Shown: piece after piece, positions 34,986 to 50,036 of the stretch
How positions within the stretch are numbered: the first letter of the stretch is position 1
Layout: each line of letters starts with the position of its first letter
Sequence record: OQ845958.1
Source of the DNA: Escherichia phage pEC-M719-6WT.2
DNA length: 64,000 bases
Direction: 5' to 3' (one strand)
The notes under the pieces: generated by a model
Told to the model about the DNA's origin: nothing
Database searches by the model: none
The model's input: only the letters and a program-made list of their open reading frames with translations
Program-made: the position numbers and the translations under genes

Positions 34986-36310
34986 TTAAATTTGAAGACT
35001 TGAACACAGGACAAAAAGAAGCTTTTGATTATATTACTGAAGCTATTCAGCGACGTTCAGGGGAATGTATCACTCTGAATGGTCCAGCTGGCACAGGTAA
35101 GACCACTCTGACAAAATTTGTCATTGACCACTTAGTGCGTAATGGAGTTATGGGAATTGTGCTTGCTGCACCAACTCACCAGGCGAAAAAAGTTTTATCT
35201 AAATTGTCTGGTCAAACAGCGAATACAATCCATAGTATCTTGAAGATTAACCCAACGACATATGAAGACCAAAACGTTTTTGAACAGCGCGAAATGCCTG
35301 ACATGTCAAAATGCAATGTTCTGGTTTGTGATGAAGCAAGTATGTATGACGGGTCTCTGTTTAAGATTATTCTTAACTCTGTTCCTGAATGGTGCACTAT
35401 TCTTGGAATTGGTGATATGCACCAGCTGCAGCCGGTTGACCCAGGAAGCACACAGCAAAAGATAAGCCCGTTCTTTACGCATCCTAAGTTCAAACAGATT
35501 CATCTGACTGAGGTCATGCGAAGCAATGCTCCTATCATTGAAGTGGCGACAGAAATTCGCAATGGCGGCTGGTTTCGCGACTGTATGTATGAAGGCCATG
35601 GTGTGCAAGGTTTCACCTCACAAACCGCTTTAAAGGATTTCATGGTAAACTATTTCAGTATTGTAAAAGATGCTGATATGTTGATGGAAAACAGGATGTA
35701 TGCATACACGAATAAATCAGTTGAAAAACTGAACAATATTATTCGTCGCAAGCTCTATGAAACGGATAAAGCATTTTTACCGTATGAAGTCCTGGTTATG
35801 CAAGAGCCGCACATGAAAGAGTTGGAATTTGAAGGTAAGAAATTCAGCGAAACCATTTTTAATAATGGTCAGTTGGTTCGCATCAAGGATTGCAAATACA
35901 CTTCCACCATTCTCCGTTGTAAAGGCGAATCGCACCAGTTAGTGATTAATTACTGGGACCTGGAAGTTGAGTCAATTGATGAAGATGAAGAATATCAGGT
36001 TGACCGCATCAAAGTTTTACCAGAAGACCAGCAACCAAAATTCCAGGCATATCTGGCGAAAGTTGCTGACACATACAAACAGATGAAAGCCGCTGGTAAA
36101 CGTCCAGAGTGGAAAGACTTCTGGAAAGCGCGCAGGACCTTCTTGAAAGTCCGTGCTCTTCCGGTCAGTACAATCCACAAGGCCCAAGGCGTTTCAGTGG
36201 ACAAAGCATTCATCTATACTCCATGCATCCATATGGCCGAAGCTTCATTAGCGAGCCAGTTGGCTTATGTAGGAATCACACGAGCGAGGTACGACGCATA
36301 TTATGTATAA
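34982..36310 (+). CDS. dda: DNA helicase Dda (SF1B)
   Basis: 442 aa; Walker A GPAGTGKTT, DEASM; strong match to remembered T4 Dda. Confidence 0.95.
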   Translation: MIKFEDLNTGQKEAFDYITEAIQRRSGECITLNGPAGTGKTTLTKFVIDHLVRNGVMGIVLAAPTHQAKKVLSKLSGQTANTIHSILKINPTTYEDQNVFEQREMPDMSKCNVLVCDEASMYDGSLFKIILNSVPEWCTILGIGDMHQLQPVDPGSTQQKISPFFTHPKFKQIHLTEVMRSNAPIIEVATEIRNGGWFRDCMYEGHGVQGFTSQTALKDFMVNYFSIVKDADMLMENRMYAYTNKSVEKLNNIIRRKLYETDKAFLPYEVLVMQEPHMKELEFEGKKFSETIFNNGQLVRIKDCKYTSTILRCKGESHQLVINYWDLEVESIDEDEEYQVDRIKVLPEDQQPKFQAYLAKVADTYKQMKAAGKRPEWKDFWKARRTFLKVRALPVSTIHKAQGVSVDKAFIYTPCIHMAEASLASQLAYVGITRARYDAYYV

Positions 36311-36542
36311 AGTACATAAAGAAGATTTAGATAATCTTATCTATGGTATTCAGGACGCGGTTGAATTTTTCGAAGATAATCCGACTATCGTCGTGCAGGG
36401 TAATTACGTTTTGCTGGAACTGAATCTTATTCGGAAACGTATGGCCGCGATTGAATATTTTAACAATGAAGAGCCAGGGATTTTTATCTCCGACTATGTT
36501 GCTGGTGAAATTCAAAAATTAAAAGAGATGTGCGATGATTGA
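36303..36542 (+). CDS. hypothetical protein
   Basis: 79-aa ORF coupled to dexA. Confidence 0.45.
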   Translation: MYKVHKEDLDNLIYGIQDAVEFFEDNPTIVVQGNYVLLELNLIRKRMAAIEYFNNEEPGIFISDYVAGEIQKLKEMCDD

Positions 36543-37218
36543 TGCTATTATTGACTTTGAAACTCTGGGAAACGGCTCGAAGGGAGCCGTTATTGACCTG
36601 GCTCTGATTACATTCGAATCTGACCCTGCTATTGTGGAATCATTCGAAACCCTGGTTAATCGCGGCAAACGTATCAAGTTTAGCCTTGAATACCAAAAAG
36701 GTAAGCGTCTGTTCGATACAACAACCATGGGTTGGTGGAAAAAGCAATCAGCAGAAGCCCGTGTTAACTTGGCTCCTTCTGCGCAAGATGTTGATACTCT
36801 GACCGGTATCCAACAGGCAATTGATTATCTGAATGGTAATGGAATTAACAAATACGAAAGCCTTATGTGGTGTCGTGGAATGTCTTTTGACTTCCCGTTG
36901 TTTGTTGACCTTATCCGTGACCTACAGCGCAATGAGGGTATTCCCGAGCGTGAATTGAATACCTATGGCCTGGAGCCAGTTGTATTCTGGAACCAGCGAG
37001 ATATCAGGACAGCAATCGAAGCCCTATCACTCGTCCGTAAGATGTGTGAAACTCCATTACCAAAGGGGACTTTAGATGGATTTGTGGCGCATGATTCGGT
37101 GCATGACTGCGCGAAAGATATTTTGATGCTTAAGTATGCCCAGCGCTATGCTCTTGGTTTGGATGAAGTTCCTTCCGAAGAAGATGCAGACCCGTTATCT
37201 TTACCGAAAAAACGATAA
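36535..37218 (+). CDS. dexA: exonuclease A (DnaQ-like 3'-5' exonuclease)
   Basis: 227 aa, N-terminal DFET exonuclease motif, same length as T4 DexA. Confidence 0.8.
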   Translation: MIDAIIDFETLGNGSKGAVIDLALITFESDPAIVESFETLVNRGKRIKFSLEYQKGKRLFDTTTMGWWKKQSAEARVNLAPSAQDVDTLTGIQQAIDYLNGNGINKYESLMWCRGMSFDFPLFVDLIRDLQRNEGIPERELNTYGLEPVVFWNQRDIRTAIEALSLVRKMCETPLPKGTLDGFVAHDSVHDCAKDILMLKYAQRYALGLDEVPSEEDADPLSLPKKR

Positions 37219-37225
37219 AAAGTAG

Positions 37226-37254
37226 TGTACAAGGCCAATGGAAAGAGACATAAT
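37226..37254 (+). promoter_or_regulatory. early promoter (-35 TGTACA, -10 CATAAT)
   Basis: AAAAGTAGTGTACA, 17-nt spacer, CATAAT, then SD-hairpin motif. Confidence 0.45.
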
Positions 37255-37285
37255 CATCTCATCAACTACTGATGAGGATAACAAA

Positions 37286-37543
37286 ATGATTACTTCTTTT
37301 GAAATTGGCCAACAATATGAAATGTCTGCTCTTCAAGCTGCTGAAGCAGGTCTGACTGAAGCGTTTGAATGTGCATTTACAAATATTCGTGGTAAAATCT
37401 TTACTGTCAATAAAATTGCGGTATATGATAAAGAAACAGACATGAACAAAGGCATCTACTTGAACGTGTCAAACGCAAAAGGCCGTCGTGAAATTATGGT
37501 TGTACAACCTAACCAACTGGCGATGTTCAATAAGGTTACATAA
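37286..37543 (+). CDS. hypothetical protein
   Basis: 85-aa ORF from ATG after SD GAGGA. Confidence 0.45.
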   Translation: MITSFEIGQQYEMSALQAAEAGLTEAFECAFTNIRGKIFTVNKIAVYDKETDMNKGIYLNVSNAKGRREIMVVQPNQLAMFNKVT

Positions 37544-38295
37544 TGAAACCAGAATTTATTGACTTTGATGTTGTAAGCATGTATGTTCGCCCAATTAAAC
37601 CATTAAAACTTGAGAAACAAAATATGACTATTGAAATTAACAAAACTTATCAACTGATTGAACCTATTATTCAAAACGCAGCTATGGTTTCTGGGTATAA
37701 TACTCTGACTGATGCTTTAGGCGAAGGTGAATTTATTGTTGAAACTTTTGTAAAAAGTAACTGGTTTGATAAAGCATATATTTTGCATGCACGTCGCCTT
37801 GATACAAATGAAGTAGAAAAAATTATGGTTTATGAAGCTGAGATTGAACTCTTCAAAGAAGTTGAAGAAACTCCTATCAAAGTTGACAAAACCTATCAAC
37901 TTGTTGGATATGGTGATTTTGATAATACTAATGCATTGAATGCCGGTTGGCGCGTACTGAAAGGTATTTTTGGATTTGCTCCATTTACCGTTAAAACAGT
38001 TAAGTACCACAATCACCAAAGCATCTTTGAATTTACTGCGGTCAATGAATCAGGTGACAATCTTGAAGCCATCCTTTATCCGCGTGAATCTGTACTGCTG
38101 GAAGAAGTTAGCGAACTGGGTGACCCTATTGACTTGTTATGCAAACCAGTTCAAATCAAACGCCCATTTAACAGTTCCATTTGTGGTTGGGTAACAGACC
38201 AGTGGATTGAAGATGGTGTTGAACTCCTGAACGTTGTCCATGCTGGTGAATTTACTGTTGTACCACGTTCTATGGTTGTTGAAATTTTTAATTAA
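37543..38295 (+). CDS. hypothetical protein with internal repeat; C-terminal domain shared with next ORF
   Basis: 250 aa; (N/D)KTYQL repeated twice; C-terminus GWVTDQWIEDGVELLNVVHAGEFTVVP. Confidence 0.5.
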   Translation: MKPEFIDFDVVSMYVRPIKPLKLEKQNMTIEINKTYQLIEPIIQNAAMVSGYNTLTDALGEGEFIVETFVKSNWFDKAYILHARRLDTNEVEKIMVYEAEIELFKEVEETPIKVDKTYQLVGYGDFDNTNALNAGWRVLKGIFGFAPFTVKTVKYHNHQSIFEFTAVNESGDNLEAILYPRESVLLEEVSELGDPIDLLCKPVQIKRPFNSSICGWVTDQWIEDGVELLNVVHAGEFTVVPRSMVVEIFN

Positions 38296-38300
38296 ATTTA

Positions 38301-38345
38301 AAGTGTACAAACTCTTGGGGTCAGAGTATAATGACCCCACTGGAG
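38301..38345 (+). repeat. promoter/stem-loop cassette copy A
   Basis: AGTGTACAAACTCTTGGGGTCAGAGTATAATGACCCCACTGGAG; 44/45 identical to copy at 49511. Confidence 0.7.
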
Positions 38346-38374
38346 AATAAACTTATTAACCAAGAGAGAAAATT

Positions 38375-38929
38375 ATGAAAGTTGAAGCTGGTGATATTGT
38401 ACGTGTTTCTAAAGAATCTCGTTCTAAAGCTGCTGGTCGTTTTGTTGAGGTTGCGGGTCTTCGCACTAATTTAGTAGGTGGAATTAAAGAAGTTAAAGTG
38501 CGTATCATTCCTAAAAATGGTCAGACTGAAACTCAATTGGCTTATGTGCATCCTAAATTCCTGGAATCAACCGAATTTACTGGATATATCGCTCCTGTGT
38601 CTGAGGAAGTTGAATCCCATGATGGATATGTGTGCGAAAGCAATGATATCCGTGGTGTAATTGCTCAAGACGTTGAAACCATTGACCAGTCTCATGTTGG
38701 GGTTGATTTTAAATGGAAATTGGGCAAAGGTGTCTTTTTTGTTTCACCTAAACCGTTTGAATACAATTGCATGTACGGTCCGACTTATGAAACCACTAGC
38801 ATGTCTGGTTACATCACAGACCAGTGGGTTGAAGAAGGTGTCAAACTGTATAATATCGTATTCCTTGGAACCTTTAAGGTTGTTCCTGAGAGCTTTATCG
38901 TTGAGTATGCCGATATTCATTTTGCCTAA
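38375..38929 (+). CDS. hypothetical protein; C-terminal domain paralogous to 37543 ORF
   Basis: 184 aa; C-terminus GYITDQWVEEGVKLYNIVFLGTFKVVP. Confidence 0.5.
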   Translation: MKVEAGDIVRVSKESRSKAAGRFVEVAGLRTNLVGGIKEVKVRIIPKNGQTETQLAYVHPKFLESTEFTGYIAPVSEEVESHDGYVCESNDIRGVIAQDVETIDQSHVGVDFKWKLGKGVFFVSPKPFEYNCMYGPTYETTSMSGYITDQWVEEGVKLYNIVFLGTFKVVPESFIVEYADIHFA

Positions 38930-38977
38930 ATTATAAAAATGATAGGGTAATTTTGCCCTATCAATGAGGAGAATATT

Positions 38978-39202
38978 ATGTTTAATGAAGATTGTGTGAC
39001 CACTTCCCTGACTGCTGAAGAGTTTTGGGACACTGCCGAAAGTGATAAAGTGATTGTGAAGAAAAACATCAATGAATTTCTTTGCACCACTGATATCATT
39101 TATGTGTATGCAGACAAAGACGCAGAACTACCTAGCTATGCGCTGTTCCGCGAAGAATCAGAAGATGGTACAGATTTTTGGAAGGAGATTTATAATGTCT
39201 AA
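38978..39202 (+). CDS. hypothetical acidic protein
   Basis: 74-aa ORF with SD GAGGAG. Confidence 0.4.
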   Translation: MFNEDCVTTSLTAEEFWDTAESDKVIVKKNINEFLCTTDIIYVYADKDAELPSYALFREESEDGTDFWKEIYNV

Positions 39203-39566
39203 ATTTGAAACTGATAAGTGGTATTATTTTAAAGATAATGTTGCTGAAAGCAGATTCCGTTTGTTATGCACAGATAATGATAATATAGCCAATGCTATAA
39301 TCAATGGCGAGGGATTTAGACCAGTCAGAATTGAAGATGGTGATGTGTATAAAATGGAATTATCAACTGGTGAATTTGTGAGCCTATTCATAAAGGAAGA
39401 CGAATTCCGTTTCTTTGAAGAAGAAAAAGATGACGATACTGAAGATGAATGCGAAGACGCAGCTCCATCTGAGCCAAGCGAATTCCCTTTGACTAAAATC
39501 ACCATCTCTAATAACTCCGAAGCCTGGACCGTTTACCAGATGTTGAAAGCACACTTTAAGGAATAA
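39195..39566 (+). CDS. hypothetical acidic protein
   Basis: 123-aa ORF from internal ATG. Confidence 0.4.
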   Translation: MSKFETDKWYYFKDNVAESRFRLLCTDNDNIANAIINGEGFRPVRIEDGDVYKMELSTGEFVSLFIKEDEFRFFEEEKDDDTEDECEDAAPSEPSEFPLTKITISNNSEAWTVYQMLKAHFKE

Positions 39567-40018: not shown

Positions 40019-40420
40019 ATGTTTAAAATTGGAAAGAGTTATTGCATTAAAGATTTAGATGGCTTCCTTAAACATGTCGGTATGCCCGGTTGCATTTTGA
40101 ACCAGCAAGGAACCTCTATCATTGATTTGATTACTACCAAAGAGTTTTCAGTCACCAAGATGGAAGCAAATGTTGTGACGGAATTTAGTACTATCGATGG
40201 AACTGGATTTTCTTTCCATAGTCGTAATGGAACCGGTCTTATTTTTGGTGATGAATTTAAATATTTTGAAGAAACCCCAAAGGAATGTGATTCTGAAATA
40301 ACCGAACAGGAATCAAAAGAGGATATTGTTGTTACCGGTGGCGATGTTATTATTACGGTTAAAACTGAAGCCGGGCGCCTACAAGCTATTAAAATGTTAG
40401 AGCAGCTTCGATTCAAATAA
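40019..40420 (+). CDS. hypothetical protein
   Basis: 133-aa ORF with SD GAGGA. Confidence 0.45.
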   Translation: MFKIGKSYCIKDLDGFLKHVGMPGCILNQQGTSIIDLITTKEFSVTKMEANVVTEFSTIDGTGFSFHSRNGTGLIFGDEFKYFEETPKECDSEITEQESKEDIVVTGGDVIITVKTEAGRLQAIKMLEQLRFK

Positions 40421-49168: not shown

Positions 49169-49513
49169 ATGTCTAAAGTATTTTTTGGTAATGCTAAAGT
49201 TATGTTCTTTAAACAGATTAGCCTTCAGGAGGCGTCGGAGGCATTCAATCAAAGTATGATTCCTGACGTACATCCAAAAGTTATGACGAGTGCTGATTTC
49301 GTTTTCGTCCAAGACCCGGAAACAGGCTTTTATCGGTTCATTAAATTTCGTATGAGTATGGAGCCAGGTTATCATAGTGCTTACTACGTGAGTTATGAAA
49401 ATGTTATCAAAGAATTGCGTAATACCTATAAGCGCGCTTTGACCCCGCTGAATAAGGTGTATAATGCTTCCTTTTATACGAGCGGATTTATTTTAGAACA
49501 GCTTCAAAAATAG
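49169..49513 (+). CDS. hypothetical protein
   Basis: 114-aa ORF. Confidence 0.4.
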   Translation: MSKVFFGNAKVMFFKQISLQEASEAFNQSMIPDVHPKVMTSADFVFVQDPETGFYRFIKFRMSMEPGYHSAYYVSYENVIKELRNTYKRALTPLNKVYNASFYTSGFILEQLQK

Positions 49514-49555
49514 TGTACAAACTCTTGGGGTCAGAGTATAATGACCCCACTGGAG
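49511..49555 (+). repeat. promoter/stem-loop cassette copy B
   Basis: TAGTGTACAAACTCTTGGGGTCAGAGTATAATGACCCCACTGGAG; drives ndd. Confidence 0.7.
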
Positions 49556-49586: not shown

Positions 49587-50036
49587 ATGACTACTTACAT
49601 GACCCGTCGTGACGTACTGAATGCTGGTGCTACCACTGTTGCTTATATCCATAATGGTAATTATGTTGCCGGTCGCCCAACTAAAGAAGCTATCACTCAA
49701 CCAGGTTTTTATTTCGTGGTTAAAGGTGAAGGTGAATCGCGTATTGTTGCCGCACGTTTTTATGTTGGTAACCAACGTTCACAACAAGGGTTTGACACTG
49801 TATTAAGTCACATCCGCAAACAGCGTTCTCAACTGTCTCGCACAATGGCGAACAATGGGGTTATCTATGAAGTCCTGTTTGTCCCAGTTTCTAAAATGAA
49901 ACCTCTGACAACTGGTTATGGTAAAGGTCAAATTGCAATGGCGTTCACTCGCTCGCATAGTTCTGATTGCCAGACCCTTTCAGAAATGAATCGCATGCTT
50001 GCTGATAACTTTAAATTCATTCTGCAGAGCTATTAA
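49587..50036 (+). CDS. ndd: nucleoid disruption protein Ndd
   Basis: 149 aa; [23 protein letters not shown]...MKPLTTG.GKGQ...[12 protein letters not shown] matches remembered T4 Ndd. Confidence 0.85.

Follow-up and report, generated by a model that had tools for sequence, protein, structure and literature searches.

The 64,000-nt window analysed here (the whole stretch of DNA from Escherichia phage pEC-M719-6WT.2, record OQ845958.1) carries, between dexA and gene 39, two adjacent open reading frames (ORFs) that constitute the motB.1-motB gene pair of an SP18-group (Gaprivervirus) T4-like phage. ORF1 is the motB.1 homologue and ORF2 is motB, and both lie on the plus strand at exactly the positions given in the original prediction (Table 1). 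Taken as a whole, we consider it quite probable that they form an early accessory host-takeover pair, with a mutual origin by duplication and domain exchange, assembled from modular small barrels. The gene pair, the C-terminal domain common to its two products (Patterson-West et al. 2021, PMC7827196) and the LSm-like N-domain in MotB.1 (Kim et al. 2025, PMC12152347) have all been published or annotated previously, and the two-barrel MotB.1 of the Gaprivervirus lineage is a minor architectural variant in an otherwise ordinary locus. Full-text searching returned PMC7827196 and PMC12152347 as the literature naming motB.1, and in the main text of the MotB.1 papers that could be searched we found no description of two N-domain subtypes in tandem.

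Positions 37200-39000 shared 99.1% identity with Yersinia phage vB_YenM_P8 and 95-97% with SP18-type coliphages, which places the phage in Gaprivervirus, and the SP18 and VR26 annotations name the counterparts of our two ORFs motB.1 and motB. Gene order in the window was dda, a small ORF (36303-36542), dexA, ORF0, motB.1, motB, cef, goF, 39.2, 39.1, an RB69ORF005c-like ORF, and gene 39, compared with dexA, motB.2, motB.1, motB, cef, goF in T4. The two ORFs had been thought to occupy the place of T4 motB, cef, and goF, but ORF2 is motB itself, ORF1 is motB.1, and cef and goF are found downstream. The position of T4 motB.2, between dexA and motB.1, is taken in the window phage by an unrelated small ORF.

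ORF2 aligned over aa 1-184 with positions 1-166 of the 166 in phrog_1671 (1.8e-67), shared 47% identity with T4 MotB over the same residues (E=5e-55), and scored 166.6 bits against Pfam PF17613 (motB; E=5.5e-49), with the best stretch at aa 87-183 (profile 65-161). Like the MotB proteins proper (Category 1 in PMC7827196), it combines a KOW-like N-domain with the C-terminal domain and lies upstream of cef. We consider it orthologous to T4 MotB, which has the same KOW-like N-domain and C-terminal barrel, the same position relative to cef, and a homologous promoter-hairpin cassette. The N-domain is KOW-like in the model, and its sequence did not match the KOW profile of NusG, Spt5, and ribosomal proteins. 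Unlike T4 MotB, the window MotB has a 21-residue acidic linker insertion (aa 80-100, 38612-38674) that is present in JS98-type MotB and absent from SP18, VR26, and T4 MotB. This insertion makes the whole window protein acidic, with an isoelectric point (pI) of 5.2 compared with 9.2 for T4 MotB. The inserted segment, DGYVCESNDIRG, resembles a degenerate copy of the 16-aa motif found in ORF1.

ORF1 matched phrog_2333 (1.3e-78), and its aa 108-249 shared 45% identity with the intact 146-aa T4 MotB.1 (E=3e-35). With PF17613 it scored 35.2 bits, a match confined to aa 210-246 (profile 118-154; E=1.4e-8); both ORF1 and ORF2 exceeded the curated gathering cut-off of 25 bits. ORF1 has the C-terminal core, non-KOW N-region, and position directly upstream of motB that characterize the MotB.1 subfamily (Categories 2-4 in PMC7827196), and the MotB.1-type core GWVTDQWIEDGVELLNVVH, also found in T4 MotB.1, was invariant across the ORF1-family alignment. 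A BFVD structure search recovered T4 MotB.1 (P39415; E=1.9e-7). T4 MotB.1 likewise consists of an LSm-like domain and the C-terminal domain and is encoded directly upstream of motB, whereas ORF1 is extended by a motif at its N-terminus and by a further LSm-like barrel that belongs to a different subtype. With ORF0, ORF1, and ORF2, neither the anti-phage defence profiles of PADLOC nor the bacterial families of NCBIfam produced a hit at E up to 1, and a PDB sequence search gave none.

The original prediction had called the two ORFs adjacent paralogues with a common C-terminal domain, and this was confirmed. BLASTP returned a single significant alignment, ORF1 aa 210-247 with ORF2 aa 140-177, in which 20/38 residues were identical (E=3e-12). 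Family profiles compared with hhalign extended this to ORF1 198-250 and ORF2 115-180 (53 columns, E=5.3e-17, probability 98.8%), where the ORF2 side has 11 inserted residues. The relationship was still visible in the DNA, where 38178-38225 and 38800-38847 were 79% identical. The shared barrel of ~55 residues is the core of PF17613, and PMC7827196 has already described MotB and MotB.1 as having a conserved common C-terminal domain with differing N-terminal regions, sorted 102 phage homologues into four categories, counted 40 genomes besides T4 with both genes, and proposed that one of the genes arose by duplication of the other. The earlier supposition that the shared segment would not prove to be a known, ubiquitous domain of assigned function has largely given way, as the domain is published and sits inside a curated Pfam family, though it is restricted to phages and has no assigned biochemical role.

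Structure prediction, which had been suggested for the shared domain, modelled it as a small barrel in both proteins. The AlphaFold2 (AF2) model of ORF1 (mean predicted local distance difference test score, pLDDT, 70.8) contained three small barrels after a disordered leader (aa 1-27). Both N-barrels had the order strand-helix-3 strands-helix-strand (pLDDT about 70-84), and the C-terminal barrel had five predicted strands (aa 202-247, pLDDT 72-84). In the MotB model (mean pLDDT 71.0), a four-strand N-barrel spanned aa 8-58 and was followed by a disordered linker at aa 67-105. The C-terminal barrel (aa 119-178) was well predicted, with pLDDT mostly 78-94, and its first hairpin was longer than that of ORF1, in agreement with the insertion in the ORF2 side of the profile alignment. 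As modelled, each protein is a chain of small SH3-like beta-barrels on flexible linkers, and the last barrel is the same in both. Eukaryotic tandem Tudor/Royal family and KOW barrels (53BP1, Spt5) shared 8-19% identity with no family-model match, and the likeness is a fold analogy only.

Table 1 Features of the motB.1-motB locus and related elements in the window.
Feature	Position	Strand	Length or residues	dN/dS	Remarks
Promoter-like site TGTACA-17-CATAAT	37226-37254	+			Just after dexA; 9/12 in consensus scan, consensus match only
ORF0	37286-37543	+	85 aa from second ATG; 101 aa from 37238		phrog_17795, 3.4e-58 over aa 17-100
ORF1 (motB.1 homologue)	37543-38295	+	250 aa	0.18-0.24	
16-aa motif IDFDVVSMYVRPIKPL	37558-37605	+	ORF1 aa 6-21		Predicted disordered, pLDDT 31-55
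LSm-like barrel 1, subtype A	37627-37872	+	ORF1 aa 29-110	0-0.15	AF2, modelled elements aa 35-107, pLDDT about 70-81
LSm-like barrel 2, subtype B (T4 MotB.1 type)	37873-38118	+	ORF1 aa 111-192	0.2-0.4	AF2, modelled elements aa 117-188
MotB-type C-terminal barrel	38119-38292	+	ORF1 aa 193-250	0-0.09	Part common to MotB, aa 198-250
44-nt cassette, copy 1	38302-38345	+	44 nt		Upstream of motB
ORF2 (motB)	38375-38929	+	184 aa		
Basic KOW-like barrel of MotB			ORF2 aa 1-64		pI about 10
Disordered acidic linker of MotB			ORF2 aa 65-105		
C-terminal barrel of MotB			ORF2 aa 106-184		
Hairpin in motB-cef gap	38940-38963	+	10 bp		Followed by GAGGAG ribosome-binding region of cef
cef	38978-39202				Downstream of motB
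goF homologue	39195-39566				phrog_622
goF-related ORF	40022-40420				phrog_622
44-nt cassette, copy 2 (identical)	49512-49555	+	44 nt		Upstream of putative ndd homologue (49587-50036)

The N-domains of MotB.1, GoF, and Frd.2 have been described as a family with a predicted LSm-like fold, a bent five-stranded antiparallel beta-sheet (PMC12152347), and on the models the N-domains of ORF1 fit this Tevenvirinae family. The predicted N-domain fold class is common to ORF1 and the GoF/Frd.2 proteins, and the window interval itself holds a goF homologue and a related ORF, but the sequence similarity of these families to the ORF1 repeats was marginal (E about 0.002-0.03) and their C-terminal domains are unrelated. 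For ORF1 aa 28-115, the E value was 0.0094 with phrog_622 and 0.002 with phrog_3710, and hhalign comparisons of the repeats with the window goF, T4 GoF, and ORF 40022 gave E values of 0.004-0.04 at probabilities <10%. A Pfam search of the locus proteins returned no LSM or Hfq match at E up to 1. Counting the two ORF1 barrels and the two phrog_622 ORFs, the dexA-39 interval contains at least four domain copies of the LSm-like class. In one alternative, already put forward for the GoF/MotB.1/Frd.2 family, MotB.1 would use its LSm-like barrels to act on RNA as a chaperone or stability factor, with the tandem providing two RNA-binding surfaces. We consider this unlikely: the two barrels carry net negative charges (-9 and -4), the links between the repeats and the GoF families are marginal in sequence, and SH3-like barrels take so many types of ligand that the fold alone does not point to RNA. 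In addition, neither wild-type GoF nor MotB.1 clearly acted at the post-transcriptional level, and no homomultimer was modelled with confidence by AlphaFold3 (PMC12152347).

The internal duplication that had been proposed for ORF1 was confirmed as a pair of homologous segments, each ~82 aa long and headed by INKTYQL (aa 32-38) or VDKTYQL (aa 114-120). Aligned end to end, aa 29-110 and aa 111-192 were 29% identical (E=7e-5), and as profiles they aligned over 78 columns (hhalign probability 97.4%, E=1.2e-11). What did not hold was the simple picture of a duplicated segment, as the repeat joins two diverged subtypes that each occur singly elsewhere in T-even phages. Barrel 1, the additional subtype relative to T4, is found singly in the 141-183-aa MotB.1 of many Tequatroviruses, and was 54-71% identical to the single N-domain of 141-183-aa and ~250-aa MotB.1 proteins in other phages; barrel 2 was 51% identical to P0109. 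Each N-barrel was thus nearer to single-domain MotB.1 of other phages than to its neighbour in the same protein. We rejected a recent DNA-level duplication within ORF1, as the two halves had no direct DNA repeat, and the repeat is best described as an old accretion of two long-diverged subtypes rather than a recent duplication. A fusion of two adjacent motB.1 genes was considered for its precursor and also rejected, as AR1 has one motB.1 (LSm-like barrel, motif, C-terminal domain) and an unrelated motB.2.

We examined the best 120 of 190 ORF1 homologues and compared architectures across 260 relatives. Both N-barrels were present together in seven clusters among the best 120, and the two-barrel 250-aa MotB.1 was kept intact in ~33 phage records (>=80% identity). 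A phmmer search over 1.84 billion cluster representatives returned 18 related clusters, one of them spurious, which answers the question of distribution raised at the outset: the MotB.1 family is confined to T4-like phages. A 3446-aa protein (P0244, phmmer E=4.6e-22) was rejected as a summed chance match, since in a local phmmer run 12 of its repeats matched with -2 to 11 bits each, always on a single FN3-like strand pattern (SGYxxLxxAxGxGxF). A 43-aa metagenomic protein (P0255) had the first ~15 residues of MotB.2 joined to the last 29 of the MotB.1 barrel; we interpret it as a putative deletion remnant comparable to the 29-aa RB69 peptide of PMC7827196.

The 16-aa motif at the N-terminus of ORF1 was conserved at 48-65% identity in >100 relatives, with the pattern [IV]D.D[VI].SMY..P[IL].P[LI], and its place relative to the folded domains varied among MotB and MotB.1 relatives. 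ORF1 and the ~180-aa forms have it at the N-terminus. In AR1 and P0245 it separates the LSm-like barrel from the C-terminal domain, and in distant T4-like phages it follows a KOW-like domain and precedes a C-terminal domain of the MotB.1 type. At least one protein of this last type, P0248, was encoded on a contig with a single motB-family gene adjoining cef. The motif may be a short linear interaction motif, and the constant core of the family appears to be the motif and the C-terminal barrel, with N-barrels swapped around that core.

Nei-Gojobori estimates of the ratio of non-synonymous to synonymous substitution rates (dN/dS) among the window phage, SP18, and VR26 placed every domain of MotB.1 under purifying selection (Table 1). 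Close relatives have two allelic versions of the first loop and helix of barrel 2 (aa 121-133, 37903-37941): the window phage and VR26 carry VGYGDFDNTNALN, SP18 and UPEC01 carry IEDDSQFGKTVAMH. Most non-synonymous change in motB.1 fell within this patch, a pattern that suggests recombination or diversifying pressure. These data bear on the alternative that the tandem MotB.1 is a neutral, functionless product of recombination in a part of the genome that is dispensable and changes fast. T4 can do without the region, and a motB.1 deletion has no laboratory phenotype (PMC12152347, PMC7827196); architectures in the family are also highly variable, down to deletion remnants like the 43-aa P0255. 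However, purifying selection was found everywhere in the gene (dN/dS 0-0.4, and <=0.09 in the C-terminal barrel) and the 250-aa form has stayed intact in ~33 phage records, which makes a neutral origin highly improbable.

T4 MotB, a modifier of transcription, is toxic to E. coli when overexpressed and is a tight DNA binder of no detectable sequence specificity; it doubles burst size, and H-NS and StpA co-purify with it (Patterson-West et al. 2018, PMC6070864). It also changes H-NS footprints. ORF1 is acidic throughout (pI 4.68, net charge -16; barrel 1 -9, barrel 2 -4, C-terminal barrel -4), and the shared barrel has a net charge of -4 in MotB and MotB.1 alike. In a mechanism that we advance tentatively, and about which we are more doubtful than confident, the shared, acidic, most constrained C-terminal barrel would be a common docking or oligomerisation module that brings different N-terminal effector barrels to one target. 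For MotB this target would be the H-NS/StpA-coated nucleoid, and acidic MotB.1 would act there as a protein-binding adaptor rather than a nucleic-acid binder. We favour docking over DNA binding for the shared barrel because it is acidic and the most constrained part, while the KOW-like domain of MotB is the sole clearly basic module; an adaptor role of MotB.1 would follow, on the same reasoning, from its acidity.

The opposite assignment would make the shared barrel a DNA-binding element and MotB.1 a second DNA-binding modulator of H-NS. Such a role would suit a C-terminal domain that is common to the proven DNA binder MotB and that HHpred modelled as a cold-shock-type OB (oligonucleotide/oligosaccharide-binding) fold, and both genes are kept in many genomes (PMC7827196). 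Set against this are the acidity of the barrel in both proteins, the pI of 4.68 for ORF1, and the absence from MotB.1 of the KOW-like N-domain that is the basic part of MotB, and we find this assignment improbable.

MotB.1 could instead be a partner or antagonist of MotB, with association through the C-terminal barrels tempering the toxic, DNA-coating protein. The genes are adjacent and their products combine a common domain with a sharp difference in charge, both genes occur together in 40 other phage genomes (PMC7827196), MotB is toxic (PMC6070864), and T4 MotB.1 was partly dimeric on non-reducing gels (PMC12152347). Some distant T4-like phages, though, have a lone motB-family gene (KOW, motif, MotB.1-type C-terminal domain), and we rate this explanation as quite improbable. 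A fuller version, in which the shared barrel hetero-oligomerises so that MotB.1 is partner or antagonist of toxic MotB at the H-NS/StpA nucleoid while the motif and variable LSm-like barrels recruit further host partners, is in our view very unlikely. If it were true, the negative results with T4 MotB.1 would be uninformative, since the 119-aa form used probably lacks the end of that barrel.

Returning to the proposal of an accessory host-takeover pair with a docking barrel, several points weigh against it. Deletion of motB.1 left the burst and latent period of T4 normal, and a gene 41 reporter assay did not respond to MotB.1 (PMC12152347). We infer the docking role from charge and conservation only, and the MotB C-terminal domain may have the cold-shock-type OB fold that HHpred assigned to it (PMC7827196). 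Finally, the putative promoter that motB has of its own (below) means that co-regulation of the pair would not be obligatory.

The T4 results must be read together with the state of the T4 reference gene. The T4 reference (NC_000866.4/AF158101.6; 7291-7650) has one extra G in motB.1 relative to OZ035787.1 (ATTGGAAGAT vs ATTGAAGAT), and its product, at 119 aa, lacks the final ~29 residues of the MotB-type barrel. The intact 146-aa motB.1 was present at 100% identity in ten further T4 records and in RB55 and RB59, and T4T contained it at 99.8% and equal length. The extra base in the T4 reference is probably a sequencing error. UniProt P39415 is the 13.8-kDa (119-aa) form of MotB.1, and the functional study of MotB.1 used the 13.8-kDa form (PMC12152347). 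Judging from the resequenced T4 records, the MotB.1 in published functional tests was probably truncated and had lost the end of its C-terminal barrel.

As had been predicted, motB lies behind a promoter-like cassette of 44 nt with a second, identical copy elsewhere in the window. A 36-nt search pattern occurred twice (38303-38338, 49513-49548) and in none of 100 shuffles. Within the cassette lie TGTACA-17-TATAAT (38304-38332, 10/12), which is the top sigma-70-like site in this region, and an 8-bp hairpin (38316-38339) that spans the -10 hexamer and is followed by GGAG, and motB would be transcribed from its own early promoter within it. An intrinsic terminator after ORF1 was rejected, as the cassette hairpin has no T-run and the terminator scan listed none there. 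A homologous cassette precedes motB in T4, where the two arms of the stem have changed in a compensatory way (GGGACCA/TGGTCCC). GGAG is the cleavage motif of RegB, and the hairpin/GGAG sites of the cassette may be processing sites. The second copy precedes ORF 49587-50036, a putative ndd homologue judging by the T4 Ndd sequence and by its place upstream of gene 52, as in the T4 gene order. The region upstream of T4 ndd did not contain the cassette and had a different hairpin and GGAG. The identical cassette thus fronts motB and the putative ndd homologue, and T4 MotB and Ndd both act on the host nucleoid.

The promoter-like site just after dexA has a AGTGTACAA box in common with the motB cassette and is likely an early promoter for ORF0 and motB.1. 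ORF0 in its 85-aa form corresponds to the VR26 annotation, and its stop overlaps the start of motB.1 by one base (TAATG), by which motB.1 is predicted to be translationally coupled to ORF0. Homologues of ORF0 were limited to 6 near-identical clusters among 5.8 billion proteins, and ORF0 is, on this distribution, an apparent Gaprivervirus-specific orphan at the position of T4 motB.2. ORF0 was considered as a possible third LSm-like domain; with just 6 near-identical clusters no ORF0 profile could be built, and hhalign gave a weak full-length alignment with the LSm-like repeats (E=0.007, 5% probability). A fused ORF0 was considered as the source of the N-terminal extension of ~247-aa MotB.1 (P0008 type) and rejected for want of any BLASTP similarity. 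The hairpin in the motB-cef gap had a predicted energy of -14.3 kcal/mol (z=-3.25), and the terminator scan reported it on the minus strand only.

The modularity of this family, in which a motif, one or two LSm-like barrels, and the C-terminal barrel are combined in several orders, marks the C-terminal barrel and the motif as the constant functional core. The acidic shared barrel argues that DNA binding by MotB resides in its basic KOW-like domain, and the probably mis-sequenced T4 motB.1 means that functional tests may have used a broken C-terminal domain. As a discovery the locus carries little weight, and these three points are of modest use for work on host takeover by T4.

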